Positions 9,927-61,931 are shown, counted from the stretch's first letter. The stretch: DNA of 64,000 nucleotides from Pseudomonadota bacterium (GCA_018822105.1 JAHJLB010000033.1:23377-87376), one strand, 5' to 3'. Numbers and translations are program-made. The notes: generated from the sequence alone by a model not told the origin.

Positions 9927-10777
9927 ACCTGAACACGTTCTTGCTCGCCCTGGCCGGGCTCGTTTTGGCACCGCTTCTGGGCGGCCTGGCGGCCGGCGTG
10001 GACCGCGTGGTCACGGCCCGGCTGCAGTCGCGCCTGGGCCCGCCCCTGCTGCAGCCCTTCTTTGATGTGGGCAAGCTCATGAGCAAGGCCATCGCCCCGG
10101 CCAGCCACTGGCAGGGGCTCTTCGTGCGCTGGGCGCTCGCCGCCTCCCTGGCCTCGGACGTGCTCCTGGCCGCCGGGGGCGACGTGCTCATGTGCTTCTT
10201 CGTCCAGGCCGCCAGCGCGAGCTTCGTGGCCCTGGGCGCCTTCTGCGGCAGCTCGCCCTACTCCAAGCTCGGCGCCCAGCGCGAGCTGTTCCAGCTCCTG
10301 GCCTACGAGCCGGTGTTCCTGGTGGCCATCCTCTGCATGGCCAAGGCCGCAGGCGGCTTCGACGCCTTCAGCATCATGGCCGCCCAGGGTCCGCTGCTGC
10401 TCAGGCTGCCCCTGGTGGTGCCGGGCCTCGTCTTCGTGGTGCTGGTGAAGCTGCGCAAGAGCCCGTTCGACATCGCGGCCAGCCACCACATGCACCAGGA
10501 GGTGGTGCGCGGCGTGTACACCGACTACGCCGGGCGCGACTTCGCCCTGCTGGAGCTCGCCCACTGGGCGGACGTCACCGTGGTGCTCTGGATCTGCTCC
10601 TTTCTGTGGGCCACGGGCCCGCTGCAGATGCTGGCCACGGGCCTGGCGTTCCTGTTCGCGGCGCTCATCATCGACAACATCAGCGCGCGGCTGACCTGGC
10701 GCACCATGCTGAAGCGCACGGCCCCCCTCACCCTGATCCTGGCCACGGCGAACCTCGTCTGGCTGTATCTGGAGTAA
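9923..10777 (+). CDS. echB: Ech hydrogenase membrane subunit EchB (NuoH-like)
   Basis: ATG 9923 overlaps the echA stop (ATGA). Translation [46 protein letters not shown]. The upstream part of the track ORF is spurious. Confidence 0.85.
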   Translation: MNLNTFLLALAGLVLAPLLGGLAAGVDRVVTARLQSRLGPPLLQPFFDVGKLMSKAIAPASHWQGLFVRWALAASLASDVLLAAGGDVLMCFFVQAASASFVALGAFCGSSPYSKLGAQRELFQLLAYEPVFLVAILCMAKAAGGFDAFSIMAAQGPLLLRLPLVVPGLVFVVLVKLRKSPFDIAASHHMHQEVVRGVYTDYAGRDFALLELAHWADVTVVLWICSFLWATGPLQMLATGLAFLFAALIIDNISARLTWRTMLKRTAPLTLILATANLVWLYLE

Positions 10778-10781
10778 GCCC

Positions 10782-11225
10782 ATGTTCGGATCATTTCTCA
10801 GAGCCTCCCAGGTCAAGAGCCCCTGGCTCCTGCACTTCGACTGCGGCTCGTGCAACGGCTGCGACATCGAGACCCTGGCCTGCCTGACCCCGGTGTACGA
10901 CGTGGAGCGCTTCGGCGTCATCAACGTGGGCAACCCGCGCCACGCCGACGTGCTCGTGGTCACCGGCACCGTGAACCCCAGAAACGCCGCGGTTCTGAAA
11001 AACCTCTACGACCAGATGCCGACGCCCAAGCTGGTCATCGCCGTGGGCGCCTGCGGCTGCTCCGGCGGCGTGTTCCGCGAGGCCCCCAACGTCCTGGGCG
11101 GCATCGACAAGGTCATCCCCGTGGACGTGTACGTTCCCGGCTGCCCGGCCAAGCCCGAGGCCATCATGGACGCCGTGGTCACAGGCCTGGGCAAGCTCAA
11201 GGCCATTCTGGAGGCAAGCAAATGA
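10782..11225 (+). CDS. echC: Ech hydrogenase small subunit EchC (NuoB-like, [4Fe-4S])
   Basis: Motifs CGSCNGCDIE...GACGCSGG...PGCPAKPE. Confidence 0.9.
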   Translation: MFGSFLRASQVKSPWLLHFDCGSCNGCDIETLACLTPVYDVERFGVINVGNPRHADVLVVTGTVNPRNAAVLKNLYDQMPTPKLVIAVGACGCSGGVFREAPNVLGGIDKVIPVDVYVPGCPAKPEAIMDAVVTGLGKLKAILEASK

Positions 11226-25055: not shown

Positions 25056-25077
25056 CACCCCGAAGCGGCCGGACTAA

Positions 25078-25250
25078 CGATATCCTCATTCGGCGCCCGC
25101 AAGGGCGAAAAGGGAATCCCGTGCAATTCGGGAGCGGACCCGCCGCCGTGAGCCCCGCAAAGAGTCGGCCCCCCCGCGCGCCACTGGAAGCAATTCCGGG
25201 AAGGCCGGGGCCGATGGGGTGAGTCGGAAGACCTGCCGGATGCGACTTGG
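25078..25250 (+). promoter_or_regulatory. Cobalamin (B12) riboswitch aptamer
   Basis: AAAAGGGAATCCCGTGCAATTCGGGAGCGGACCCGCCGCCGTGAGC core, B12 box GCCACTGG (25180-25187), and GAGTCGGAAGACCTGCCGG closing segment. Boundaries approximate. Confidence 0.85.
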
Positions 25251-25308
25251 GTTTCCTGTCGGCAACGAGGGCTTTTGCCCGGCAGGACTTGAAGGGGACG
25301 AATACGGG

Positions 25309-25347
25309 CACCCCTTTCCGCTTGAAGCGCGGGAAGGGGTGTTTTTT
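25309..25347 (+). terminator. Riboswitch expression-platform terminator (attenuator)
   Basis: CACCCCTTTCCGC (25309-25321) pairs with GCGGGAAGGGGTG (25329-25341) with one mismatch, followed by TTTTTT. Lies 38 nt before the cbiK ATG. Confidence 0.75.
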
Positions 25348-25384
25348 CGCCCCCGCACCAGCCCCTCCGCAGTGGAGGTCCTTC

Positions 25385-26290
25385 ATGCGTCTTCTTCCCT
25401 TCCCTTTGGCTTTCCGTCTCCTGCTGCTCGCCGCCCTGGCGTTGCCTCTGGCCCTGCCCCTTGCCATGCCCGACATGGCCCAGGCCGGGCACAAGGCCCC
25501 GGACAAGCGCGGCATCCTGCTGGTGGCCTTCGGCACCAGCGTGCCCGAGGCCGTTCAGGCCATCGACGCCATCAGACAGCAGGCCGAGGCCGCCTTTCCC
25601 GGCCTGCCCGTGCGCCTGGCCTACTCGTCCAGGATCATCCGCGACAAGCTCGCCGGGGAAGGCGCCGCGAAGAAATCCCCGGCCCAGGCCCTGGCCGACA
25701 TGGCCGCCGAGGGCTTCACCGAGGTCGCCGTGCAGTCCCTGCACTCCATCCCCGGCCGCGAGTATTCCGACATCAAGGCCACGGCCGAGGCCTTCCAGGC
25801 CATGCCCAAGGGCCTCAGGAAGGTCAGCGTGGGCCGCCCCCTGCTTTACTCCCACGCGGACATCGCCAAGGCCGCCGAGGCCGTGCTGGGTTTCCTGCCC
25901 GGGCACAAGAAGGGCGAGGCCGTGCTGCTCATGGGCCACGGCACGGACCACCCGGCCAACGCCGCCTACGCCGCCCTGCAGCTGGCCCTGTGGAAGCGCG
26001 ACCAGAACATCTTCATCGCCACGGTGGAGGACACCCCCGGCCTGGGCGAGGTCATCCCGGAGCTGAAGCGCCAGGGCATCCGCAAGGTGTTCCTGGTGCC
26101 CATGATGTCCGTGGCCGGCGACCACGCCCACAATGACATGGCGGGCAAGGAGGACGACTCCTGGGCCTCCAGGCTCACGGCCGCTGGCATCAGAAGCGAG
26201 CCCGTGCTGGTGGGCCTGGGCAGCCGCCCGGCCGTGGCCGCGCTGTGGATCGACCACCTGCGCGACGCCGTGAAGGAACTGGACCGCTAG
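25385..26290 (+). CDS. cbiK: Periplasmic CbiK-type sirohydrochlorin cobaltochelatase paralogue (CbiK-P)
   Basis: ATG 25385. Signal peptide MRLLPFPLAFRLLLLAALALPLALPLAMP. Chelatase body GILLVAFGTS...LLMGHGTDHPANAAY...VPMMSVAGDHAHNDM. Confidence 0.85.
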   Translation: MRLLPFPLAFRLLLLAALALPLALPLAMPDMAQAGHKAPDKRGILLVAFGTSVPEAVQAIDAIRQQAEAAFPGLPVRLAYSSRIIRDKLAGEGAAKKSPAQALADMAAEGFTEVAVQSLHSIPGREYSDIKATAEAFQAMPKGLRKVSVGRPLLYSHADIAKAAEAVLGFLPGHKKGEAVLLMGHGTDHPANAAYAALQLALWKRDQNIFIATVEDTPGLGEVIPELKRQGIRKVFLVPMMSVAGDHAHNDMAGKEDDSWASRLTAAGIRSEPVLVGLGSRPAVAALWIDHLRDAVKELDR

Positions 26291-26291
26291 C

Positions 26292-27407
26292 ATGACCACC
26301 GGCGCCAGGGACAGCCGCGCGCAGGGGCGCGACCTGAGAACCAGGGTTCTCTGGATCAGCGTTATCTGTGCGGCTTCCCTGGCGTCCGGCATAGTGGCCT
26401 GCGGCCTGGGCAGTTTTCCCAGCACCCCGGCCCAGACCCTCATCGCCCTGCTCCAGGCCTTGGGCCTTGGCGCGGGCCAGTCCGTGGACCCGGCCCTGTC
26501 CGTGGTGGTGGTGGACATCCGCCTGGCGCGTGTGGCCCTGGCCTGGCTCACGGGCGCGAGCCTGGCCGTGGCCGGGTGCGTGTTCCAGGGCGTGCTGAGA
26601 AACCCCCTGGCCGACGCCTTCACCCTCGGCGTGTCCGGCGGCGCGGCCTTCGGGGCCTCGGTGGCCATCCTCTCGGGGCTGGGGTCCGGCCTGGCGGGCG
26701 GGACCTTTCTCGCCGCAATGGGCGGCGGGGCCGGCATCCTGCCCGTGTTCGCCCTGGCCGGGGCCCTGCTGGCCCTGGCCGCCGTGCTGGCCCTGGGCCG
26801 GGCGGGCGGCGGAGCGGACGGCGGCCTGCGCCGCGAAACCCTGGTCCTGGCGGGCATCGTGGTCTCCACCTTCCTCTCGGCCCTTATCTCGCTCCTGAAG
26901 AGCCTGGACGAAGAGAGCGTGGCCAGCATCGTCTTCTGGATCATGGGCAGCTTCCAGGGCCGCGGCTTCGAGCACGTGCGCCTGGCCCTGCCTTACATGG
27001 CCGTGGGCCTGGGGCTGGTGGCCTGGCGCGCGCGGGAGCTGGACCTCCTGTCCCTGGGCGAGTCCCAGGCGCGGATGCTCGGCCTGGACGCCGGACGCTC
27101 CAGGCTGTGGCTGCTCGTGGGCGCGAGCCTGCTCTCCGGGGCGGCCGTGGCCGTCTCCGGGGTCATCGGCTTCGTGGGGCTGGTGGTGCCGCACCTTCTG
27201 CGCCAGGTGGTGGGCGCTGGGCATCGCACCCTGCTTCCGGCCTCGGCCTTCCTGGGCGGGCTGCTGCTCCTGTGGAGCGACGTGCTGGCGCGCAGCATCC
27301 TGCCCGGCGGCGCGGAGCTGCCCGTGGGCGTGGTCACGGCGCTCCTCGGCGGGCCGTTCTTCTGCCTGCTCCTGGGCCGGTCCGCACGCCTGGGGAGGGG
27401 CGCATGA
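26292..27407 (+). CDS. FecCD-family ABC permease (BtuC-like corrinoid/iron-chelate type)
   Basis: 371 aa, polytopic. LRNPLADAFTLGVSGGAAFG and GVIGFVGLVVPHLLR motifs. Confidence 0.85.
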   Translation: MTTGARDSRAQGRDLRTRVLWISVICAASLASGIVACGLGSFPSTPAQTLIALLQALGLGAGQSVDPALSVVVVDIRLARVALAWLTGASLAVAGCVFQGVLRNPLADAFTLGVSGGAAFGASVAILSGLGSGLAGGTFLAAMGGGAGILPVFALAGALLALAAVLALGRAGGGADGGLRRETLVLAGIVVSTFLSALISLLKSLDEESVASIVFWIMGSFQGRGFEHVRLALPYMAVGLGLVAWRARELDLLSLGESQARMLGLDAGRSRLWLLVGASLLSGAAVAVSGVIGFVGLVVPHLLRQVVGAGHRTLLPASAFLGGLLLLWSDVLARSILPGGAELPVGVVTALLGGPFFCLLLGRSARLGRGA

Positions 27408-28207
27408 TCCGCGTCACGGCCCTGCGCTGCGGCTATGGCCACGCTGGCGGGTGGCGGGAGGCGCTCCACGGCGTCGACCTGCGCCTGGCGCGCGGCGAGA
27501 TGGTGGGCCTGCTCGGCCCCAACGGCTCGGGCAAGACCACCCTGCTCTCGGCCCTGGCCGGGCTTGTGCCCGTCAAGGCCGGGGGCATCGAGGTGGGGGG
27601 GGCGGACATCAGCCGCCTTTCGCCCCGGCAGCGCGCCCTGCGCGTGTCCTGCGTGCCGCAGCGCGCCGAGGTTGCGCCGGGCTTCAGCGTGCGCGAGCTG
27701 GTGCTCATGGGCCGCTTTGCGCACACGGGCCTGCTTTCCGGCTACGGCCCGGAGGACCACGCCGCGGCCGAGGCAGCCCTTGGGGACGTTCACGCCCTGG
27801 ACCTGGCCGAGCGCCAGGCCGCGGAGCTTTCCGGCGGGGAGCTCCAGCGGGTGCTGCTGGCCCGCGCCCTGGCCCAGGGCCGCGAGCTGCTGCTTTTGGA
27901 CGAGGCCGCCTCGGCCCTGGACATGGCCCGCCGGGTGGAGGCCTACGACCTCCTGGCCGCGCTGCACGAAAGCGGCAGCACCATCCTTTCGGCCATGCAC
28001 GACCTGAATCTGGCCGCCCTGTACTGCCCGCGCCTGGTGTTCCTGAAGCGGGGCCGCATCGCCCTGGACGGGCCGACCACGGAGATATTCACGGAATCGA
28101 ACCTGAAGGACATCTATGAGACGGACATCCGCGTGGCGGCGCACCCGGTCACCGGCGCGCCCCAGGCCCTTCTGGTGCCTGGCGCTCGCGCTGCTGCTCT
28201 GGGCTGA
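27404..28207 (+). CDS. ABC transporter ATP-binding protein (BtuD/FepC-like)
   Basis: ATG 27404 overlaps the permease stop. GPNGSGKTTLL, LSGGELQRV, LLLLDEAASALD. Confidence 0.85.
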   Translation: MIRVTALRCGYGHAGGWREALHGVDLRLARGEMVGLLGPNGSGKTTLLSALAGLVPVKAGGIEVGGADISRLSPRQRALRVSCVPQRAEVAPGFSVRELVLMGRFAHTGLLSGYGPEDHAAAEAALGDVHALDLAERQAAELSGGELQRVLLARALAQGRELLLLDEAASALDMARRVEAYDLLAALHESGSTILSAMHDLNLAALYCPRLVFLKRGRIALDGPTTEIFTESNLKDIYETDIRVAAHPVTGAPQALLVPGARAAALG

Positions 28208-29099
28208 CCCGGCCCTGGCGGCCGGGCCCGCGGCAGGGGTCAGCGTCACCGACGACCAGGGCCAGGCCATCGCCCTTGCGCGCCCGGCCCGGCGCGTCAT
28301 CGCGCTGTACGGGGCCTTCAACGAGATCCTGGACGGCCTGGGCCTGGCGCATGCAATCGTGGCGCGCACCAGCGCCGACAGGCTGCCCGCGGGCATCGCG
28401 CGGCTGCCGGTCATCGGCACGCACATGCGCCCGAACATCGAGGCCGTGCTGGCCCAAAGGCCCGACCTGGTGCTCCAGCTGGCGGGCCGCAAGGAGGCCT
28501 CCCTGCCCGTGGAGGCCCTGAGGAGGCACGGGCTGCGCGTGGCCGTGTTCCACGCGTCGACCTTCGCCGAGCTGTTCAGCGTCATCCGCCGCGTGGGGGT
28601 GCTCACCGGGGCCCAGGACCGGGCCGAGGACATGGTGCGCGGCCTGGAGGCGCGCCTGGACGCCCTGGACGCCAGGCTCGCCGCCACAGCCGAACGGCCG
28701 CGCGTGTTCTTCGAGGTGCGCTCGCCGAACATGCTGGCCGCCGGGCAGGCGGGCCTGGTGGGGGAGATCATCCGCCGCGCCGGGGGCGAGAACTGCGTGC
28801 AGGACAGGGCCAAGTTCGCACGCCTGGGCGAGGAGGAGATCATCCGCCTGGAGCCTGCGGCCTACCTCATCCAGCGCGGCCCCATGAACCCGGCGCCGCT
28901 GGCCCTGGACAGGCGCCCGCGCCTGCGCGCCATCCCCGCCGCCCAAAACGGCCGGGCCTGGTTCGTGGACGAGCAGAAGTACTCGCGGCCCGGCCCGCGC
29001 AACGTCGACGCCGCGGAGGAGCTGGCGCTGCTGCTGCACCCGGAGCTCAAAGGCCCGGCCCTCCTTCAGACGAAACCAACACGCAAGGACAGGAAATGA
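28116..29099 (+). CDS. Periplasmic substrate-binding protein (BtuF-like, cluster A type 2)
   Basis: 327 aa. Arg-rich N-terminus plus hydrophobic signal ...FWCLALALLLWADPALA. The only ATG/GTG start overlaps the ATPase gene by 92 nt. Confidence 0.75.
   Translation: MRRTSAWRRTRSPARPRPFWCLALALLLWADPALAAGPAAGVSVTDDQGQAIALARPARRVIALYGAFNEILDGLGLAHAIVARTSADRLPAGIARLPVIGTHMRPNIEAVLAQRPDLVLQLAGRKEASLPVEALRRHGLRVAVFHASTFAELFSVIRRVGVLTGAQDRAEDMVRGLEARLDALDARLAATAERPRVFFEVRSPNMLAAGQAGLVGEIIRRAGGENCVQDRAKFARLGEEEIIRLEPAAYLIQRGPMNPAPLALDRRPRLRAIPAAQNGRAWFVDEQKYSRPGPRNVDAAEELALLLHPELKGPALLQTKPTRKDRK

Positions 29100-29802: not shown

Positions 29803-29806
<4 letters not shown>
29096..29806 (+). CDS. cbiL: Precorrin-2 / cobalt-factor II C20-methyltransferase
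   Basis: GIGVGPGDPELITLKAV...FLTLGDPLTYSTF...IPGITS. ATGA overlap with the preceding gene. Confidence 0.85.
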
Positions 29807-31857
<2,051 letters not shown>

Positions 31858-31921
31858 GAGCACCTCCAAGTATGGAGATCGTTATCAGAAATGCGCGCGC
31901 CGCCGCAAGGGGCTCCCCCCG

Positions 31922-32474: not shown

Positions 32475-34814
32475 CTAGCCCAGGGCGTGGACGCGCGGGC
32501 CCTGGGCCGTGTCCTCCACGCGGTAGCCGCTGGCGGCCAGCTTCTCGCGCAGGGCGTCGGAGGCCGCGAAGTCCTTGGCCTGGCGCGCGGCCTGCCGCGC
32601 GGCCACCAGGGCGCGCACGTCCTCGGGCAGGCAGTCGCAGGCGATGGGCATCTGGCCCAGGTCCAGGATGCCCAGCACCGTGTCCGCGGCCTCCAGCTGG
32701 TGCAGGCACTGGCCCGCGGCCGCGCCGGAAAGCCCGCCCGCGGCCAGCCAGCCGTTGACGAGCTTCACGAAGGTGAACAGCTTGGGCCAGTAGCGGTGCA
32801 GGGACAGGTCGTCCTCCAGGGCCGCGGCCAGGCCGGCCTTGAGGTCGAACACGGCCTGGGCCACATCCTCGGACACGTCCGCCGCCCTGGGCCTGCCCTT
32901 GGCCGGGGCCTCCCCGGCGGCCAGGCGCAGCCCGCAGGCGGCCTCCTGGACCTTGTGCCAGTTGCGCGCCCACATGGACAGGCTCTGCCTGGATGCGGCC
33001 AGGGGCTTGTGGTAGTCTGCGGAGAGCAGCCACAGGCGCAGGGCCCCCGCCTGTCCGCCGGCGGGGCCGCCGGCCTGGGCCATGAGCTCGTCCAGGCTCA
33101 GGGCAACGCCCTCCTCGCGGGCCAGCTTCCTGTCCGCCAGCCAGGCCCGCGGCTCCACGCCCGCCGCGCTCCAGAGGGCGCGCAGGTTCTCCAGGTGCGG
33201 GAACTGGTGGTCCTCTCCGGCCACCAGCACGTCCACCCGGCCCAGGGCGGAGAGCCCGGCCACGGCCACCTGCACGAACCAGCTGGGCCGCACGTTGCCC
33301 CACTCGGTCTCGACGACGTCGCCCAGCTTCAGGTCCTGCAGGCTGGCGCGCTTGAGCAGGGTGAAGTCCAGGGGGTTGTCCTTCACGTAGTCGCCCAGGT
33401 CCACGGTCTTGCCCACGGAGAGCATGTCCATGTCCATGAGCCGCATGTTGCCGTAGCGGGCGTCGCGGCGCACGTCGAAATACACGCTCCTGAGCTTCTC
33501 GTAGGCCTGGCCCTTGCCCAGGAGCTTGCGGCAGAGGTCCAGGGCCTGGGGCACCGAGGACGAGGCCGGCTCGAAGACGGTCTCCGGCAGCAGGCGCAGG
33601 GCCTTGGCCCGGGCCCTGATGCGCTCCGTGACCCCGGCGACGTACTCCGCGCGGGACTGCCCCGCGGCCCGGGCCGAGGACAGGGTGCGGTCGTCCAGGT
33701 CGGCCAGGCCCACGGCGTGGCGCACCGTGGCCCCGCGCGCGGCCAGATGCCGGGCCAGGACATCGGAGAGCACCAGCCGCCGCCAGACGTCCGGGTCGTC
33801 CGGGTCGTCCAGGCTGGGGCCGATGGTGTAGATGTTCAGGGGGCCCGCGGCGTCCACCAGGGCCTTCTTGCCCGTGGCCAGGTTCATCAGGCGCAGGCCG
33901 TCCAGGGCCTTGGGCGCGAACAGCGGGGTGGACAGGTAGCGCTCGCCGTTGTCCGGAAAGATGACCACGATGTAGCCGCCCTGGCCTTCGGCCTCCAGGC
34001 TGGCGGCCAGCTGAAGCGCCCCGGCCATGGCCGCGCCGGAGCTCATGCCCACGAACAGGCCCTCCTCCCGCGCCAGCTGGCGGCAGGTGGAGAAGGCCTG
34101 CTCGTCCTCCACGTGGAGGATCTGGTCCAGGGCCTTCTTGTTGTAGATGCCCGGCGGATAGGACTCGTGCATGTTCTTCAGGCCCTGGATCTTGTGCCCG
34201 GCAAAGGGCTCCACGGCCACCACCCTGACCCCGGGGTGCTCGTGCAGGCGCTTGGCCAGGCCCATGGCCGTGCCCGAGGTGCCCAGGGTGGCCACGGCGT
34301 GGGTCACCTCGCCGCCGGTCTGCTCCCAGATCTCCAGCCCCGTGCCGTTGTAGTGGGCCTCGATGCTGGCGGGGTTGTTGAACTGGTCCATGAGCACGTA
34401 GGTGTCCGGCTCGGTGCGGGCCAGGCGGTAGGCCTCCTCGATGGCCCCGTCGGTGCCCATGCGGCCCGGGGTCAGGCGTATCTCCGCGCCGTAGCCGCGC
34501 ATGATGCGCTTGCGCTCCTCGCTGGCCGAGTCGGGCATGAGCAGGAGGATCTTGTAGCCCTTCACCGCGGCCACCATGGCCAGGCCCACGCCGGTGTTGC
34601 CGCTGGTGGCCTCGATGATGGTCTTGCCGGGCTTGAGCTCGCCGGAGCGCTCCGCCGCCTCGATCATGGCCACGGCCACGCGGTCCTTGATGGACCCGCC
34701 GGGATTCATGGACTCGAGCTTCGCCATGATTTTGACGTTGGCATGCGGGTTCAGGCGGCGGATCTCCACCAGGGGCGTGTTGCCCACGAGCCTCAATATG
34801 TCCGTGCGCTGCAT
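32475..34814 (-). CDS. Cysteine synthase (CysK/CysM-type PLP enzyme) fused to a full-length but motif-degenerate cysteinyl-tRNA synthetase-like module
   Basis: ATG 34814 (AAGGAA upstream). N-terminal part: GNTPLVEI...NPGGSIKDR...TSGNTG...GTSGT. C-terminal ~470 aa are colinear with CysRS (NPLDFTLLKRA, FPHLEN, DALREKLAASGYRVEDTAQGPRV) but lack HIGH and KMSKS. Confidence 0.85.
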   Translation of the reverse strand: MQRTDILRLVGNTPLVEIRRLNPHANVKIMAKLESMNPGGSIKDRVAVAMIEAAERSGELKPGKTIIEATSGNTGVGLAMVAAVKGYKILLLMPDSASEERKRIMRGYGAEIRLTPGRMGTDGAIEEAYRLARTEPDTYVLMDQFNNPASIEAHYNGTGLEIWEQTGGEVTHAVATLGTSGTAMGLAKRLHEHPGVRVVAVEPFAGHKIQGLKNMHESYPPGIYNKKALDQILHVEDEQAFSTCRQLAREEGLFVGMSSGAAMAGALQLAASLEAEGQGGYIVVIFPDNGERYLSTPLFAPKALDGLRLMNLATGKKALVDAAGPLNIYTIGPSLDDPDDPDVWRRLVLSDVLARHLAARGATVRHAVGLADLDDRTLSSARAAGQSRAEYVAGVTERIRARAKALRLLPETVFEPASSSVPQALDLCRKLLGKGQAYEKLRSVYFDVRRDARYGNMRLMDMDMLSVGKTVDLGDYVKDNPLDFTLLKRASLQDLKLGDVVETEWGNVRPSWFVQVAVAGLSALGRVDVLVAGEDHQFPHLENLRALWSAAGVEPRAWLADRKLAREEGVALSLDELMAQAGGPAGGQAGALRLWLLSADYHKPLAASRQSLSMWARNWHKVQEAACGLRLAAGEAPAKGRPRAADVSEDVAQAVFDLKAGLAAALEDDLSLHRYWPKLFTFVKLVNGWLAAGGLSGAAAGQCLHQLEAADTVLGILDLGQMPIACDCLPEDVRALVAARQAARQAKDFAASDALREKLAASGYRVEDTAQGPRVHALG

Positions 34815-34904
34815 GGCTGTTCCTTGGGTTGCGGGCCGGCGGCCCCCTGGGAGGCGCTGGCCCGCGAATTGCATTTCCTTCCCCAAACACAAGGGGTCGG
34901 CCTG

Positions 34905-36674
34905 ATGACTGCGTATCCGCATTTAAGAGAAAACATCACTGCCCTTGAGCGTGCCAACCCGGCGCTGTACGCTTGGCTCTCAAAATTCGCCTTCGACGAA
35001 GAATCCCTGAAAACGGGCGTCTTTGTCAACCAATGGGGGCTCATCGACTGGCGCATGCCCTGCGGCGCGGGCATCTTCGAGGCCCTGCCGCCCGCCGGGC
35101 TGTACCGCGAATGGCTGGACATCGAAAAGCCGGACCTCTCGGCCACGGTCATCATCGGCACCAACCTTGGCTACGGCCTGAACCACGTCCTCGTCAACAC
35201 GCCGGACACCCACAAGGTGCTCGTTGTGGAGCCGAACCCCGCCGTGCTCCTGGCCTGCCTGGGCCAGACCGACTACCGCCCGTTCATGGACAACATGAAG
35301 CTGCACTTCGTCCTGCCCACGGAGGAATACCTCGCCGAGGTCGTGAAGAACCTCGACCTGCAGTACGTCTACGGAAAAATTTACCTGCGCGCGGACCTGC
35401 CCAGCCGCCAGATCGGCCCGGAGTACGCCCAGTGGATGAACACCGTCAAAAACCGCCTGGAGAACTTCAGCGTGGAGATGGTCACCCTGCGCCTGCGCCA
35501 GGACGTCATGGTCGGCAATGAGCTGAAGAACTACCGCCGCGCCCTCACCGACGGCAACCTCAAGTGCCTGAAGGACAGCGCCGCAGGCGTGAGCGCCGTG
35601 ATCCTGGGCGCCGGCCCGTCCATCAGCCAGTTCGCCCCGGAGCTGGTGAAGAACCGCGGCTACGCCCTGTACGTCACGGCCCTGCAGACCCTGCCGGTGC
35701 TCCGGCCCTATGACCTCAAGCCCGATTTCTGCCTGGCCCTGGACTACGACGACAGCATGCTCTCCCTCTACGACCGCCTGGACATGGACTGGGCGAAGGA
35801 CATCCCCCTCATCTACTCCACCAAGGTCAACCCCGAGGTCGTGAGCCGCTATCCCGGCCCCACGCTGCCCCTGTGGACCCTGGGCGGCCTGGCCACCTTC
35901 GTGCTCCAGGACCGCGAATTCGTCCTCGACGCGGGCGGCAACGTCTCCGTCACCCTGGTGCGCCTGCTGCGCTGGATGGGCATCAGCGGCATCCTCATGG
36001 CCGGCCAGGACTTCGCCTGGAAGGGCGAGGTGACCCACGCCGAAGGCCACCACGCCCGGCCCTACACCATGCAGTTCGACCCCCAGCGCCACCAGGTCCT
36101 GAAGAACCTCTGGGGCGAGGACATCTACTCCAGCGTCCAGTACCTGACCAGCAAGCGCGACCTGGAGAACGACATCAAGAAGTCGCCCTTCCGCATCTAC
36201 AACCTCTATGGCGGCGGGGCCATCATCGAGGGCGCGCCCGCCCTGACCCTGGGCGAGGCCCAGACCAAGGGCTGCCTGGCCTCGGCCCCGGGCAGCAAGG
36301 AGCGCTTTCTCAAGCTCCTGGCCCAGGCCCGCACCCCCGGGCAGGACATCTGCTTTGAGCCGCGCAGCCACATCTGGACCAATTCCATTCGCAACGTGGA
36401 AAAGCGCCTGCACAGGCTGTTCAAGCACAGCAGCGCCAACCAGGAGCAAGTGCACAACCTCCTGGAGCAGGCCCTGTTCTTCGTGCGCCAGGATCCGCTC
36501 TACCTGCCCTACCTGTTCAACGAGACCCTGGACCTGGCCGGGCTGGCCAAGACCCGGCGCAGCTACGAGCACAAGGACCAGTTGGAGTTCAAGCGCATCG
36601 CCAGGAGCATCCTGGCCAAGGTGCGCGAGGTGGACCGCTGCGTGGCCGGGCTGGGCCGCCACAAGGCCGCCTGA
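34905..36674 (+). CDS. Motility-accessory-factor (Maf) / DUF115 MptE-like family protein
   Basis: ATG 34905. AVILGAGPSISQF...YVTALQTLPVLRPYDLKPDFCLALDYDD. Only the last 590 codons of the 1409-aa track ORF are protein-like. Confidence 0.75.
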   Translation: MTAYPHLRENITALERANPALYAWLSKFAFDEESLKTGVFVNQWGLIDWRMPCGAGIFEALPPAGLYREWLDIEKPDLSATVIIGTNLGYGLNHVLVNTPDTHKVLVVEPNPAVLLACLGQTDYRPFMDNMKLHFVLPTEEYLAEVVKNLDLQYVYGKIYLRADLPSRQIGPEYAQWMNTVKNRLENFSVEMVTLRLRQDVMVGNELKNYRRALTDGNLKCLKDSAAGVSAVILGAGPSISQFAPELVKNRGYALYVTALQTLPVLRPYDLKPDFCLALDYDDSMLSLYDRLDMDWAKDIPLIYSTKVNPEVVSRYPGPTLPLWTLGGLATFVLQDREFVLDAGGNVSVTLVRLLRWMGISGILMAGQDFAWKGEVTHAEGHHARPYTMQFDPQRHQVLKNLWGEDIYSSVQYLTSKRDLENDIKKSPFRIYNLYGGGAIIEGAPALTLGEAQTKGCLASAPGSKERFLKLLAQARTPGQDICFEPRSHIWTNSIRNVEKRLHRLFKHSSANQEQVHNLLEQALFFVRQDPLYLPYLFNETLDLAGLAKTRRSYEHKDQLEFKRIARSILAKVREVDRCVAGLGRHKAA

Positions 36675-36696
36675 ACTTCAGGAATACCTGATTGTT

Positions 36697-36734
36697 GCGC
36701 CCGCCGGGAACCCTTCCGGCGGGCGCTTCCTTGT
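36697..36734 (+). terminator. Intrinsic terminator
   Basis: GCGCCCGCCGG / CCGGCGGGCGC 11-bp stem followed by TTCCTTGT. Confidence 0.6.
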
Positions 36735-36779
36735 CCCCGGCCGGGTTGCATGCGCCCCGGATTCGCCCTATAAGGCCGC

Positions 36780-37397
36780 ATGTCGAGTCGCACCCCCTCC
36801 CCCCTGGCCGCCTGGGCCCTTTTGTCCCTGCCGCTGCTCCTGGCCCTGGGGGCCTTCTACGGCTTCCTCGGCTCCGAAGACGCCATCAACGCGCATTTCA
36901 GCGCCTGGCGGCCCGAGCACCCCGCCGCCGTGACCGCCCTCAAGCTCTGCACCGACTGGGGCAACCCGGCCTTCTACCTCGTCTACGCGGGCATCCTGGC
37001 GCGCGGGCTCATGGCCCGCCGCCGCGACCTGACCATGATGGCCCTGGGCTGGCTGGCCGCGCAGCTCCTGGTGTCCCTGGCCCTGGAGCGCCTGCTGAAG
37101 ACCGCCATCGGCCGGCCCCGTCCCGATGTGGGCGGCCCCTTCCGGCCCTGGTCCCTTGACGCCGGGCACCACTCCCTGCCCTCGGGCCACACCACGGAGA
37201 TCCTGGTGCAGACCCTGCCCCTGGCCCTGCGCGCCGGGGCCTGGCTGGCCCCTCTCGGCCTGGGCCTCGTGGCCGGCGCCATGGGCGCGAGCCGCGTGCT
37301 CCTGGGCTGGCACCACCCAACCGACGTCCTGGCCGGCTGGCTGCTGGGCAGCCTGGGCGGAGCCCTGGCGCACCGCCTGGCGAGGAGATGGACATGA
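36780..37397 (+). CDS. PAP2-family membrane phosphatase
   Basis: Acid-phosphatase motifs KTAIGRPRP, PSGH and SRVLLGWHHPTD. Confidence 0.85.
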   Translation: MSSRTPSPLAAWALLSLPLLLALGAFYGFLGSEDAINAHFSAWRPEHPAAVTALKLCTDWGNPAFYLVYAGILARGLMARRRDLTMMALGWLAAQLLVSLALERLLKTAIGRPRPDVGGPFRPWSLDAGHHSLPSGHTTEILVQTLPLALRAGAWLAPLGLGLVAGAMGASRVLLGWHHPTDVLAGWLLGSLGGALAHRLARRWT

Positions 37398-39064
37398 CCC
37401 TGCTGGACCGTCTCTGGAGCCTGATCCACCGCCGCCCCTGGCTTGCCCTGGCCGTGCTCGCGGCCACGCAGACGGCCTTCACCCTGTCCGCGCGCGCGCA
37501 GTGGTTCTCCGACGAGGTGCGCTACGCCGACGCCTACGCCGGGCTGCTGCGCGGCCGCTGGCTGGTGCTGTCCCTGAACGGCGTGGCCTACCCGGACAAG
37601 CCGCCCCTGTACTTCTGGTTCCTGCGCCTGCTCGACGCCCTGCCCGGCATGGACGACCCGGCGGTGTTCCTCCTGGGCGCGGCGGCAAGCGGCCTGCTGG
37701 TGCTCTACGCCACGCTCCTCTGGGCGCGGGTGCTGGGCCTGCGCACCGAGGCCGGCCCCCTCGCCGGGCTGATCCTGCTCTCCACGCTCTTCTTCGCCGG
37801 GCTGCTGCACTACTCGCGCATGGACCTCTTCTTCACGGCGCTGATCCTCTGCTCCCAGGCGACCTTCTGCCTGGCCTTCCGGCCTGGCGAGGAGGCGCGG
37901 CGCGGCCGGCTCTGCGCCCTGGCCCTGGTCCTGGCCGGGCTGGCCACCCTGACCAAGGGGCCCCTGGGCCTGCTCTTCCCGGTGCTGACCACCCTGCTGT
38001 TCCTCGCCTGGCGCGGACGCGGGCGGGAGTTCTTCCGCGCCCACATGCTGCCGGGCCTGGGCGCGCTCCTGGTGCTGGTCTTCTCCTGGGTGCTGGCGGC
38101 CTATGTGGTGGAGGGGCCGGGGTTCCTGCACAAGATCTTCTACGAGCAGATCTTCCAGCGCGCCACCAAGACCTTCCACCACGCCGAGCCCTTCTACTTC
38201 TACCTGGTGGCCTTTCCGCCCTGCTGGCTGCCCTGGACCCTGGCGCTCCTGGCCCTGCCCGTGCGCCGGCTCCTGGACGGGGCCTTCTGGCGCGGGCTGT
38301 GGGCCGGGCGCAAGGGCTCCTCCCCCGGGGCCGACGCCCGGGCCTGGCTGTGGATCTCCTTCCTCAGCGGGCTGGCCCTGCTCTCGCTGCTGAGCGGCAA
38401 GGTGGTGGTCTACATCCTGCCGCAGCTGCCCCCCCTGGCCCTGCTGCTGGCCCTGGCCCTGCTGGACGAGGACGCGCCCCGGCCCTGGCAGCGGCTCTGG
38501 ACGGCCTCGGGCCTCCTGTTCCTGGCCCTGGCCGCCGCGACCACCCAGGCCGCGCGCTTTCTGCCCGTCCCCATGCCCCTGCCCGGAGCCTGGGCCGTGG
38601 CCGCGGGCTTCGCCGCCTGCGGGCTGGGCCTGCTGGCCCTGCGCGGCCAGAACGCCCGGCGCGCGCTCACCGTGCTGGCCCTGCTGACCATCCTCTGGGT
38701 GCAGCCAGCCAGCCGGATCCTGGCCCCCGGGCTGGACGCCATCATGAGCCCCAAGCCCCAGGCCGACGCGCTCAAGGCCTATGCCCAGCGCGGCTACCTG
38801 CCCGTGGCCCACGACATCTACCAGGGCATCTACTCCTACTACCTGGGCGGCGTGGTGCGGGAGACCGCGGGCTTCAACATCCTGGACGAGCTGGTGGCCG
38901 GGCAGGACGTGGTGCTGGCCATCAAGAAGAAGAAGTGGGACGCCTGGGACACGCGGCCCAGGCACATGACCATCGTGCTCACGCAATGGCTGGCCGGACA
39001 GCCGTACTACATCGCCGTGAGCCGCAAGGACGGGACGCCCCCCGAGCCCCTGCCTGTGCCCTAA
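37394..39064 (+). CDS. GT39/ArnT-like glycosyltransferase (dolichyl/undecaprenyl-phosphate-sugar dependent)
   Basis: Polytopic. FSDEVRYADAY...YPDKPPLYFWF. ATG 37394 (GAGGAG 6 nt upstream, ATGA overlap with the PAP2 stop) or ATG 37388. Confidence 0.8.
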   Translation: MTLLDRLWSLIHRRPWLALAVLAATQTAFTLSARAQWFSDEVRYADAYAGLLRGRWLVLSLNGVAYPDKPPLYFWFLRLLDALPGMDDPAVFLLGAAASGLLVLYATLLWARVLGLRTEAGPLAGLILLSTLFFAGLLHYSRMDLFFTALILCSQATFCLAFRPGEEARRGRLCALALVLAGLATLTKGPLGLLFPVLTTLLFLAWRGRGREFFRAHMLPGLGALLVLVFSWVLAAYVVEGPGFLHKIFYEQIFQRATKTFHHAEPFYFYLVAFPPCWLPWTLALLALPVRRLLDGAFWRGLWAGRKGSSPGADARAWLWISFLSGLALLSLLSGKVVVYILPQLPPLALLLALALLDEDAPRPWQRLWTASGLLFLALAAATTQAARFLPVPMPLPGAWAVAAGFAACGLGLLALRGQNARRALTVLALLTILWVQPASRILAPGLDAIMSPKPQADALKAYAQRGYLPVAHDIYQGIYSYYLGGVVRETAGFNILDELVAGQDVVLAIKKKKWDAWDTRPRHMTIVLTQWLAGQPYYIAVSRKDGTPPEPLPVP

Positions 39065-39173
39065 ACCTTTGCCCATATTGGCCGATCAGTCCACATGCGG
39101 TGAAACGCCGCGACGCTGGGGGCGTCTGTCATGCAGGCCCCAGTGATCGCGCCATCACCGCAGGAGGCCATTG

Positions 39174-39782
39174 GTGCGTAAACTCTGCCTGACCGCCCTG
39201 CTCTGCCTGACCGCGCTGTCCGCTTGCGGCTGCGCGGCCATGCCCGTTTTCATGGTCGGGGACGTGCTGGCCGTGGCCGAGGCCGGGAAGACGGGCTTCG
39301 ACATGGCCGCAGGGCTGAACACGCGCCAGAGCATAGAGCAGGACATGAGTCCCGACGCCCAGACCGAGGCCCGGCTGCGCGCCGTGCTGCAGGCCCAGGG
39401 CGGGATGCTGGCCCGCGCCACCCCGCACGTGAGCCAGGGCCGCGCCTATGTGGTGGGCTCCTACGGCAGCGCCAAAGAGTTGGAGCGCGCCCAGGCGGCC
39501 ACGCGCAACGTCAAGGGCGTACGGGAGATGACGCTGTGCCTGTTCCCGGCGGGCTCGGGCCGCGCGCGGCAGACCGGCGTCACCGACGGCGAGGTGCGCG
39601 ACAGCATCCTGCGCATGAGCGGGGTGCGCACGCGCGAGGTGCGCGTGCAGGTGGTGGAGGGCAACGCCGTGCTGGTGGGCCTGGTGCGCACGGCCGCCGA
39701 GCGCGACCGCCTGAGCCAGTCCGCGCACGACGCCGGGGCCGCCACCGTGCGCAACTACGTGCGGCTTCTGGCCGCGCGGTAG
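39174..39782 (+). CDS. BON-domain lipoprotein
   Basis: AGGAGG then GTG 39174 (TTG 39171 also possible). Lipobox LTALSACG. Two BON-like segments (GVREMTL..., VRVQVVEGNAVLVGLVRT). Confidence 0.75.
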   Translation: MRKLCLTALLCLTALSACGCAAMPVFMVGDVLAVAEAGKTGFDMAAGLNTRQSIEQDMSPDAQTEARLRAVLQAQGGMLARATPHVSQGRAYVVGSYGSAKELERAQAATRNVKGVREMTLCLFPAGSGRARQTGVTDGEVRDSILRMSGVRTREVRVQVVEGNAVLVGLVRTAAERDRLSQSAHDAGAATVRNYVRLLAAR

Positions 39783-61771: not shown

Positions 61772-61849
61772 TGGCGTCCCCAAGGGGATTTGAACCCCTG
61801 TTAACGGCGTGAAAGGCCGTCGTCCTGGACCAGGCTAGACGATGGGGAC
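61772..61849 (-). tRNA. tRNA-Glu (anticodon UUC), CCA encoded
   Basis: Reverse complement GTCCCCATCGTCTAGCCTGGTCCAGGACGACGGCCTTTCACGCCGTTAACAGGGGTTCAAATCCCCTTGGGGACGCCA folds as a cloverleaf. Near-identical to the E. coli tRNA-Glu layout. Confidence 0.95.
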
Positions 61850-61857
61850 TTTTTGAT

Positions 61858-61931
61858 TGGCTGGGGGACGAGGAATCGAACCTCGATTGGCGGAGCCAGA
61901 ACCCGCAGTATTGCCTTTATACGATCCCCCA
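61858..61931 (-). tRNA. tRNA-Gln (anticodon CUG), CCA encoded
   Basis: Reverse complement TGGGGGATCGTATAAAGGCAATACTGCGGGTTCTGGCTCCGCCAATCGAGGTTCGATTCCTCGTCCCCCAGCCA. Acceptor, D, anticodon (loop TTCTGGC) and T arms all pair. Confidence 0.93.

Follow-up and report, generated by a model that had tools for sequence, protein, structure and literature searches.

Fusion gene and family distribution

The stretch of DNA analysed here (64,000 nucleotides from a Pseudomonadota bacterium, GCA_018822105.1 JAHJLB010000033.1:23377-87376) is referred to as the window, and all positions are counted from its first letter unless another locus is named. On its minus strand it carries a gene in which a cysteine synthase of the CysK/CysM family is joined, within one open reading frame (ORF), to a domain that resembles full-length cysteinyl-tRNA synthetase (CysRS). 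The uninterrupted ORF extends over 32475..34922, and the ATG at 34814 was chosen as the start codon. The sequence AAGGAA sits 5 nt upstream of this ATG, and the 779 residues encoded from it equal the length of the closest homologues; since both the ribosome-binding site and the homologue length favour 34814, a start at 34922 with a longer product was dropped. The gene boundaries given in an earlier reading of the sequence, hereafter the preliminary description, were exact. The features of the gene and its surroundings are listed in Table 1.

Table 1. Features of the fusion gene and adjoining genes. Residues are numbered in the window protein, with Escherichia coli CysRS equivalents where given; PLP, pyridoxal 5'-phosphate; CP, connective peptide.
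Feature	Coordinates	Strand	Remarks
Fusion gene	32475..34814	(-)	779 aa + stop (TAG at 32475-32477); single ORF
CysK/CysM-family PLP cysteine synthase domain	33918..34814	(-)	residues 1-299; PALP, TIGR01136, Foldseek, invariant catalytic residues
PLP-binding lysine K43 (in GGSIKDR)	34686..34688	(-)	invariant column, 26 sequences
Substrate (Asn) loop T70-S-G-N-T-G75	34590..34607	(-)	T70, S71, G72, N73, T74, G75 invariant, 26 sequences
Glycine-rich PLP-phosphate loop G178-T-S-G-T182	34269..34283	(-)	G178, T179, G181, T182 invariant, 26 sequences
Flexible linker between modules	33903..33947	(-)	residues 290-304; pLDDT <50 in AlphaFold2 model
Predicted pseudo-CysRS module	32478..33902	(-)	residues 305-779; collinear with full-length CysRS
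I331, position of Zn ligand C28	33822..33824	(-)	alignment to E. coli
D340-P-D-V343, position of HIGH (E. coli H37-H40)	33786..33797	(-)	alignment to E. coli
Most conserved block of the C-terminal half, CP-insertion equivalent	33264..33512	(-)	residues 435-517; run of invariant columns
F538-P-H540-L-E-N-L544, equivalent of FPHHENE	33183..33203	(-)	H234 retained, Leu at H235 and E238
KMSKS-loop region R562-L574, RKLAREEGVALSL	33093..33131	(-)	no KMSKS; length varies across family
C-terminal alpha/beta anticodon-binding domain	32478..32657	(-)	about residues 720-779, E. coli 403-461; CysS_C match
Anticodon-contact residues R740 (R423), R744 (R427), F749 (W432), D753 (D436), R756 (R439)	32547..32597	(-)	
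Membrane-like hydrophobic ORF, 140 aa	32041..32463	(-)	starts 11 nt after the fusion stop, behind GGGGGGA; no Pfam match
Maf/MptE-like (589 aa), PAP2 phosphatase, PMT/ArnT-type glycosyltransferase and BON-domain genes	34905-39782	(+)	divergent from the fusion gene

The G+C content at third codon positions (GC3) was 0.97 over the first 305 codons and 0.98 over the rest, compared to 0.44-0.76 in the other two frames, so that both halves are coding and without a frameshift. Two genes joined by a frameshift or a sequencing error, a possibility that the preliminary description had named, are ruled out by the single ORF, by a codon bias that runs uniformly across the junction, and by more than 80 independent assemblies, complete genomes included, that carry the fusion full-length as a single ORF of 745-820 aa. 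Nothing was found in favour of such an artefact, nor in favour of the C-terminal half being an active CysRS with non-canonical motifs, and we regard this pair of explanations as extremely improbable.

By protein search, full-length fusions with 56-87% identity were found in Humidesulfovibrio, Pseudodesulfovibrio, Salidesulfovibrio, Paucidesulfovibrio, Maridesulfovibrio and others, named either 'cysteine synthase' or, in several JGI entries, misleadingly 'cysteinyl-tRNA synthetase'. A one-genome-per-species collection was scanned with patterns specific to the degenerate C-terminal half described below (AYEKLRSVY and WG[NS]VRPSW[FY]), yielding at least 599 matching stretches in species-representative genomes, 595 of them confirmed; the best 80 of these 599 stretches came from Desulfovibrionaceae, Desulfomicrobium and Desulfohalobiaceae. 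Across the order Desulfovibrionales the C-terminal half shows 43-83% identity. The fusion is a conserved family of this order, kept full-length, and neither an oddity nor an artefact; that it belongs to a large family had escaped the preliminary description.

Cysteine synthase module

The N-terminal half matched Pfam PALP at residues 7-288 (E 1.7e-73) and passed the TIGR01136 cysKM model (366 bits, cut-off 344), and it missed both equivalog models, TIGR01138 cysM (359 bits, cut-off 394) and TIGR01139 cysK (325 bits, cut-off 351). An AlphaFold2 model (mean predicted local distance difference test (pLDDT) 83) was compared with crystal structures of CysM and CysK using Foldseek, with target-normalised TM-scores of 0.84-0.89. 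In the alignment of 26 sequences used for Table 1, S258/S259, the serine contacting the pyridine nitrogen, was invariant as well. K43 is presumably the Schiff-base lysine, going by what is established for CysK.

The module is complete, and the SIKDR, TSGNTG and GTSGT motifs on which it had been described as a normal PLP enzyme of the CysK/CysM type are all present. Intact by sequence and fold, the N-terminal half is predicted to be a catalytically competent cysteine synthase. As to subtype, it leans towards CysM; its sequence would be compatible with either O-acetylserine or O-phosphoserine as the acceptor, and with sulfide as well as with a different sulfur donor.

CysRS-like module

Pfam tRNA-synt_1e matched residues 325-612 (8e-28) and CysS_C residues 729-771 (1e-7). 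In a phmmer search against the PDB, the C-terminal half aligned with residues 19-456 of the 461 residues of E. coli CysRS (PDB 1LI5; E 5e-31). It therefore comprises a complete synthetase body, which bears out the collinearity with CysRS described previously. The TIGR00435 cysS model (EC 6.1.1.16), with a cut-off of 340 bits, gave 136 bits. For position mapping, E. coli cysS was translated from NC_000913 and aligned with the fusion family; the E. coli strings that the preliminary description had quoted agreed with this translation. Catalytic positions, given below in E. coli numbering, were surveyed in 83 extracted Desulfovibrionales fusion copies.

HIGH was without trace in all 83 copies, with H37 replaced by D/G/E and H40 by A/V/S, as had been noted for the window protein. 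T68 is Ala in the window protein and mostly Ala across the family. The KIIK motif (73-76) reads RTLS in the window protein, with R/Q/H at position 73 and A/S/E/T at position 76 in the 83 fusions. The CP block ends with R509-P-S-W512-F-V-Q515-V516, in which W205 is kept, E208 is changed to Gln and C209 to Val; W205 and Q208 occur in 83/83 copies, and position 209 is H/V/L/M/Q/I, never Cys. Position 28 is likewise never Cys (M/P/I/V/F/L), H234 is kept in 82/83, and E238 is replaced by L/F/I in all. KMSKS aligns with GVALS or a gap in the window protein and is deleted or non-conserved in all 83; its absence had been recognised correctly, and the string RKLAREE, which had been placed at this site, lies a few residues upstream of the equivalent position. 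Essentially invariant in the 83 fusions are G29, R42, D69, W205, Q208, P233, H234 and N237.

We take C28, C209, H234 and E238 to be the zinc ligands of CysRS, and Newberry et al. reportedly described in 2002 that cysteine recognition by the enzyme goes through a bond between thiolate and zinc. The zinc of the active centre is bound by C28 and C209 (PMC5660078). C, C, H and E occupy the four aligned positions in the 93 standalone CysRSs in which HIGH and KMSKS are kept. The window protein has I, V, H and L, so that one ligand of four is kept; the substitutions that had been suspected at the zinc- and cysteine-binding Cys positions were found (C28 and C209), E238 is replaced as well, and H234 is retained. 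With no HIGH and no KMSKS, ATP binding would be lost, and with three of four zinc ligands replaced by hydrophobic residues, cysteine selection through zinc would be lost as well. The C-terminal half is thus best described as a pseudoenzyme, its CysRS fold being complete and activation of cysteine by it not plausible. Against an active CysRS with non-canonical motifs, all three catalytic signatures are missing together and the KMSKS loop is deleted.

Two other activities known from CysRS or its paralogues were considered for this module and rejected. The persulfide synthase activity of CysRS (CPERS) depends on K73, K76, K266 and K269 (PMC5660078; Akaike et al., 2017); K73 and K76 (KIIK) are replaced and K266 and K269 (KMSK) deleted in the 83 fusions, and the PLP-linked persulfide synthase role that the preliminary description had raised is not supported, all four lysines being gone. 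An MshC-like ligase was rejected on the TIGR03447 model (55 bits, cut-off 485) and the absence of the catalytic motifs.

A further possibility is that free cysteine, O-acetylserine or some other thiol or metabolite is bound at the remodelled former active site and that the attached synthase is thereby under feedback control. Such a small-molecule sensor has a precedent in HisZ, an adenylation-free paralogue of HisRS that mediates the inhibition of HisG by histidine (PMC9437257), and the invariance in the 83 fusions of the pocket residues G29, D69, W205, Q208 (always Glu to Gln), H234 and N237 would speak for remodelling rather than decay. Against it, the zinc ligands are reduced to one of four, Ala mostly takes the place of T68, and the residues at the former zinc site are not conserved in identity. 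Positions 28 and 209 carry varied, mostly hydrophobic residues across the family, which looks more like packing of the former metal site than like a site for a new ligand. That the module binds free cysteine, as had been proposed, is not supported for a CysRS-like mode of binding, as the zinc-thiolate site is made up of variable hydrophobic residues. The small-molecule sensor would moreover leave unexplained the strict conservation of the anticodon contacts described in the next section, and we consider it quite unlikely.

Anticodon-binding domain and selection

For a count of retained residues, E. coli positions conserved in at least 80% of the 93 intact standalone CysRSs were checked in 18 degenerate fusions, with domain boundaries following the 1LI5 and 1U0B papers. 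Retained were 9/26 conserved positions in the N-terminal Rossmann half, 6/23 in the C-terminal Rossmann half, 2/11 in the stem-contact (SC) fold/KMSKS region and 0/4 in the helical bundle, and, compared to these, 16/24 in the CP insertion and 6/7 in the anticodon-binding domain at the C-terminus, where the seventh residue, R427, has stayed Arg in 78% of the 18 fusions. Against the pooled catalytic parts (17/60), Fisher's test gave p = 0.005 for the anticodon domain and p = 0.003 for the CP block.

In the structure 1U0B, Arg427 and Asp436 form hydrogen bonds with G34, Trp432 stacks on G34 and Arg423 takes part in a water network; a change of anticodon specificity would call for mutation of Arg427, Trp432, Asp436 and Arg439 (PMC12684709, PMC13449415). 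Among the fusions, R423, D436, R439 and D451 are each present in 83/83, position 427 is Arg in 78 and Lys in 5, and position 432 is Phe in 69 and Tyr in 14. The 93 working CysRSs have the same pattern at the anticodon-contact positions. As read from these alignments, the losses are selective, the CP block and the anticodon-contact residues being retained while the catalytic parts changed. The retention of tRNA-Cys binding that the preliminary description had suggested is consistent with contacts kept as strictly as in real CysRSs, and it is from this conservation that we infer that the C-terminal half may still bind tRNA-Cys by its GCA anticodon.

Ratios of nonsynonymous to synonymous rates (dN/dS) were computed for the window gene against eight close relatives and ranged over 0.15-0.33 in the synthase half and over 0.32-0.58 in the CysRS-like half, ratios that are inflated in so far as the extreme GC3 probably depresses the synonymous rates. 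Mean identity to the window protein was 0.76 for the N-terminal and 0.57 for the C-terminal half. The C-terminal half is under purifying selection, which is weaker than that on the N-terminal half.

Faster evolution of the C-terminal half, in identity as in dN/dS, is what one would expect if the module bound no ligand and were a structural relic or scaffold, kept for folding, solubility, oligomerisation or localisation of the synthase. The variable hydrophobic residues that fill the zinc site, as expected for simple core packing, would also fit, as would the flexible linker and the lack of a conserved partner gene (see Genomic context). A mere scaffold does not account for the conservation of R427, D436, the aromatic residue at 432, R423 and R439, RNA contacts on the surface that are kept as in active CysRSs while buried catalytic residues change, nor for an appendage of 475 residues that is kept full-length in hundreds of species. 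We hold this explanation to be unlikely.

Intact and partly decayed fusions

A library of representatives at 50% identity was searched with the C-terminal half alone. This search recovered relatives with an intact fused CysRS, which the preliminary description had missed. In a protein from a bacterial metagenome-assembled genome (MAG; P0135), the fused CysRS is intact, with HLGN, KMSRS and four zinc ligands, and P0143 is similar. In P0161, from a Nanoarchaeota MAG (DPANN; locus L086, 8001-10307), which is named only 'cysteine--tRNA ligase', it is intact throughout. P0128 retains the zinc ligands and has lost HIGH and KMSKS, and in P0130 and P0132 both motifs are lost and C209 is changed to Ser. 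The TIGR00435 scores were 517 bits for P0161, 451 for P0135, 300 for P0132, 136 for the window protein, 132 for P0127 and 113 for P0123. P0135 and P0161 share with the window protein the two-domain architecture and the junction, and differ from it in that their CysRS halves pass the cysS cut-off and keep all motifs. A search of open-access full text found no publication on intact fusions of this type.

In a rough neighbour-joining tree (distance-based, midpoint-rooted), the fully degenerate proteins formed one monophyletic clade on a long branch. The nearest clade contained P0135, P0143, P0128, P0130 and P0132 together with some standalone CysRSs, so that no CysRS clade is closer to the degenerate family than that of P0135. 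P0161 was placed among ordinary CysRSs, away from the bacterial fusions, and is on this account probably the product of an independent fusion event. Because distant fusions occur in which the CysRS is intact or partly decayed, the fusion to a working CysRS probably came first and catalysis was lost later, in the Desulfovibrionales lineage, an order of events that is read from a distance-based, midpoint-rooted tree.

A degenerate pseudo-CysRS of 460 aa on a 9.4-kb JGI contig (P0124) was called as a standalone protein, with a Val start just before the GPS motif. It groups with the Desulfohalobiaceae fusions; its gene may have been split or frameshifted, or the protein may truly be a pseudo-CysRS that stands alone.

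Genomic context

No second cysS or cysK was found in the window or within 9 kb of the fusion gene in 84 loci; genes for tRNA-Cys were likewise absent, from the window as from 58 loci. An Rfam scan found no riboswitch, T-box or leader near the fusion gene, its only hits being the cobalamin riboswitch and the two tRNA genes given below, a simple scan for the sigma-70 consensus gave no promoter-like site there, and terminator-like hits near the gene were within chance expectation.

The 140-aa ORF downstream is tightly coupled to the fusion gene (gaps of 1-18 nt) in nine loci with a full fusion ORF called, all of them from Humidesulfovibrio/Desulfocurvus-like relatives; otherwise the downstream gene varies. 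It is probably co-transcribed with the fusion gene, as a clade-specific arrangement only. The divergent block headed by the Maf/MptE-like gene lies upstream in 43 of the loci analysed, all of Desulfovibrionaceae, a family in which most loci share it, and is absent at the Desulfomicrobium and Desulfohalobiaceae copies; it was therefore treated as family-level synteny and not as a functional link.

In three separate fusion lineages, a nitroreductase-family gene (PF00881/PF14512) directly adjoins the fusion gene (L001, 10295-10849; L025, about 10416-10964; L004, 10435-11118; L086, 7293-7802). The hosts are Salidesulfovibrio onnuriiensis and an uncultured Desulfovibrio MAG, both Desulfovibrionaceae, a bacterium whose fusion is intact, and the Nanoarchaeota MAG that encodes P0161. 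These nitroreductases are only 25-44% alike, and their adjacency, seen in few cases, seems more frequent than expected by chance.

Elsewhere in the window, a cobalamin riboswitch (98 bits) was found at 25074-25254 (+), immediately upstream of genes for a CbiK cobalt chelatase, a FecCD permease and a periplasmic binding protein (25223-29099). At 29803-31869 (-) lies the gene of a 688-aa protein with an N-terminal caspase domain (Peptidase_C14), an FGE-sulfatase domain (SUMF1-like) and a signal-like N-terminus, and at 61772-61931 (-) a pair of genes for tRNA-Glu(TTC) and tRNA-Gln(CTG).

Proposed function

The reading that we favour, with moderate confidence, is that of a working cysteine synthase to which a pseudo-synthetase is attached that has lost catalysis and binds tRNA-Cys; this module would likely serve as a sensor or a tether. 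The first module would make cysteine from sulfide with PLP, as an O-acetylserine or O-phosphoserine sulfhydrylase. The second would have kept the parts that face the tRNA, namely the CP block, the stem-contact core and above all the anticodon-reading residues, and would bind tRNA-Cys via the GCA anticodon. Cysteine synthesis could in this way be coupled to the state of tRNA-Cys, with the module acting as a sensor that adjusts the attached synthase; alternatively, the module could tether tRNA-Cys at the site of cysteine synthesis. Charging would be left to a separate cysS, which is presumably why catalysis could be lost in the Desulfovibrionales lineage. A regulatory or sensory role would have parallels in HisZ in histidine synthesis and in the reading of uncharged tRNA by T-boxes and GCN2.

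Several observations weigh against this reading. The evidence for tRNA-Cys binding is residue conservation, and the conserved Arg and Asp residues of the C-terminal domain could serve folding rather than RNA. The last 60 codons have a dN/dS of 0.30-0.75, no lower than the rest of the C-terminal half, so that the anticodon domain overall is not unusually slow and conservation is concentrated in the contact residues. A predicted TM-score (pTM) of 0.61 for the AlphaFold2 model and the disordered linker mean that no fixed inter-domain geometry is predicted, and hence no fixed interface through which the C-terminal half would control the synthase. No tRNA-Cys, cysE, cysS or other cys gene was linked to the fusion in 58-84 loci, and no operon partner conserved across the order was found. 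Finally, a dead module bound to the anticodon would be a competitor of the genuine CysRS, which fits sequestration or sensing and is awkward for a simple delivery role. A C-terminal tail that enters the active site of the synthase, as the CysE tail does in CysK, was considered and dropped, as the extreme C-terminus is not conserved.

More specifically, and more tentatively, the dead module may be a protein-level reader of tRNA-Cys that is wired to the synthase, either such that binding of the tRNA switches the enzyme or such that a tRNA-bound substrate is presented to the PLP site. If true, the switch would be a post-translational counterpart of T-box and GCN2 logic, with uncharged or charged tRNA-Cys bound via its anticodon, and the more radical second version would constitute a new tRNA-dependent route to Cys-tRNA.

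Taken as an explanation in its own right, tRNA-dependent chemistry would have the C-terminal half hold tRNA-Cys while the PLP domain acts on the esterified amino acid, for example by converting O-phosphoseryl- or O-acetylseryl-tRNA-Cys to Cys-tRNA-Cys, as a fold-type-II analogue of SepCysS, or by persulfidating Cys-tRNA-Cys. The beta-replacement chemistry of CysK and CysM is the same as that of SepCysS, whose pathway is described in PMC5424206, and the retained anticodon-reading head and CP block, joined to the synthase by a flexible tether, would be compatible with it. Two surveys of prokaryotic cysteine-encoding systems list bacterial SepRS/SepCysS in, e.g., Parcubacteria and Chloroflexi, and mention neither Desulfovibrio nor a CysK-CysRS fusion; going by these surveys, no known enzyme would load the precursor, and a pathway of the SepRS/SepCysS type is not supported. 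In addition, the N-terminal half departs nowhere from an ordinary cysteine synthase for free substrates, and the relatives whose fused CysRS is active speak for an original arrangement in which free cysteine was made first and then charged. We therefore regard such chemistry as very unlikely.

Comparison with known systems and implications

Canonical CysRS (E. coli CysS; 1LI5, 1U0B) shares with the C-terminal half the collinear extent, the domain order and the anticodon contacts, and differs in the HIGH and KMSKS motifs, in the three zinc ligands that the latter lacks, and in its match to the cysS model (136 bits for the C-terminal half vs a cut-off of 340). Closest in logic is HisZ. Like the fusion, it is derived from an aminoacyl-tRNA synthetase, does not aminoacylate, and is joined to an enzyme of the pathway to the cognate amino acid (PMC9437257), so that, by analogy only, the fusion may be called HisZ-like: a synthetase fold without catalytic motifs, covalently tied to the cognate biosynthetic enzyme. 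HisZ is, however, of class II, forms a separate subunit, is not known to have an anticodon-binding domain and senses free histidine in the old active site, whereas the fused module is of class I, is covalently attached to the enzyme of the last pathway step, and has its amino-acid site destroyed and its anticodon head kept.

The GCN2 HisRS-like domain and T-box riboswitches are sensors of uncharged tRNA that control amino-acid supply. The role proposed here would likewise have tRNA status read to control amino-acid supply; unlike the fusion, GCN2, a kinase of eukaryotes, binds many tRNAs and T-boxes are RNA, and neither is fused to a biosynthetic enzyme. MshC (the Cys:GlcN-Ins ligase of mycothiol synthesis) is, like the C-terminal half, a CysRS paralogue recruited outside translation, but it is an active ATP-dependent ligase. 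CysRS* of Desulfobacterales, which charges SelC* tRNA with Cys, is likewise a non-canonical CysRS paralogue in sulfate-reducing Thermodesulfobacteriota (PMC9437257), and it is the mirror image of the module described here, being active and without an anticodon domain where the latter is inactive and has kept it. CysRS* and MshC are the only CysRS paralogues listed in a 2022 review of aminoacyl-tRNA synthetase duplications (PMC9437257). The statement in the preliminary description that no characterised CysK-CysRS fusion was known stands, in that searches of the open-access full-text literature found no characterised case and no paper.

The whole protein is classed as a CysK/CysM-family cysteine synthase with a new kind of pseudo-CysRS domain, and its C-terminal half not as a CysRS; the label 'cysteinyl-tRNA synthetase' on fusion copies is misleading. 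The C-terminal half would add a third kind to the CysRS paralogues; hundreds of Desulfovibrionales species carry it, under the plain annotation 'cysteine synthase'. Regulatory pseudo-synthetases in amino-acid metabolism are few, with HisZ and the GCN2 HisRS-like domain as the examples, and the retained anticodon-reading residues make a direct reading of tRNA status by a biosynthetic enzyme a sharply and cheaply testable proposal. The fused CysRSs, intact, partly decayed or dead, form a series in which the turning of an aminoacyl-tRNA synthetase into a pseudoenzyme is naturally recorded. As sulfate reducers live in sulfide, the fusion may show that cysteine synthesis in these organisms is limited by demand and not by sulfur supply.

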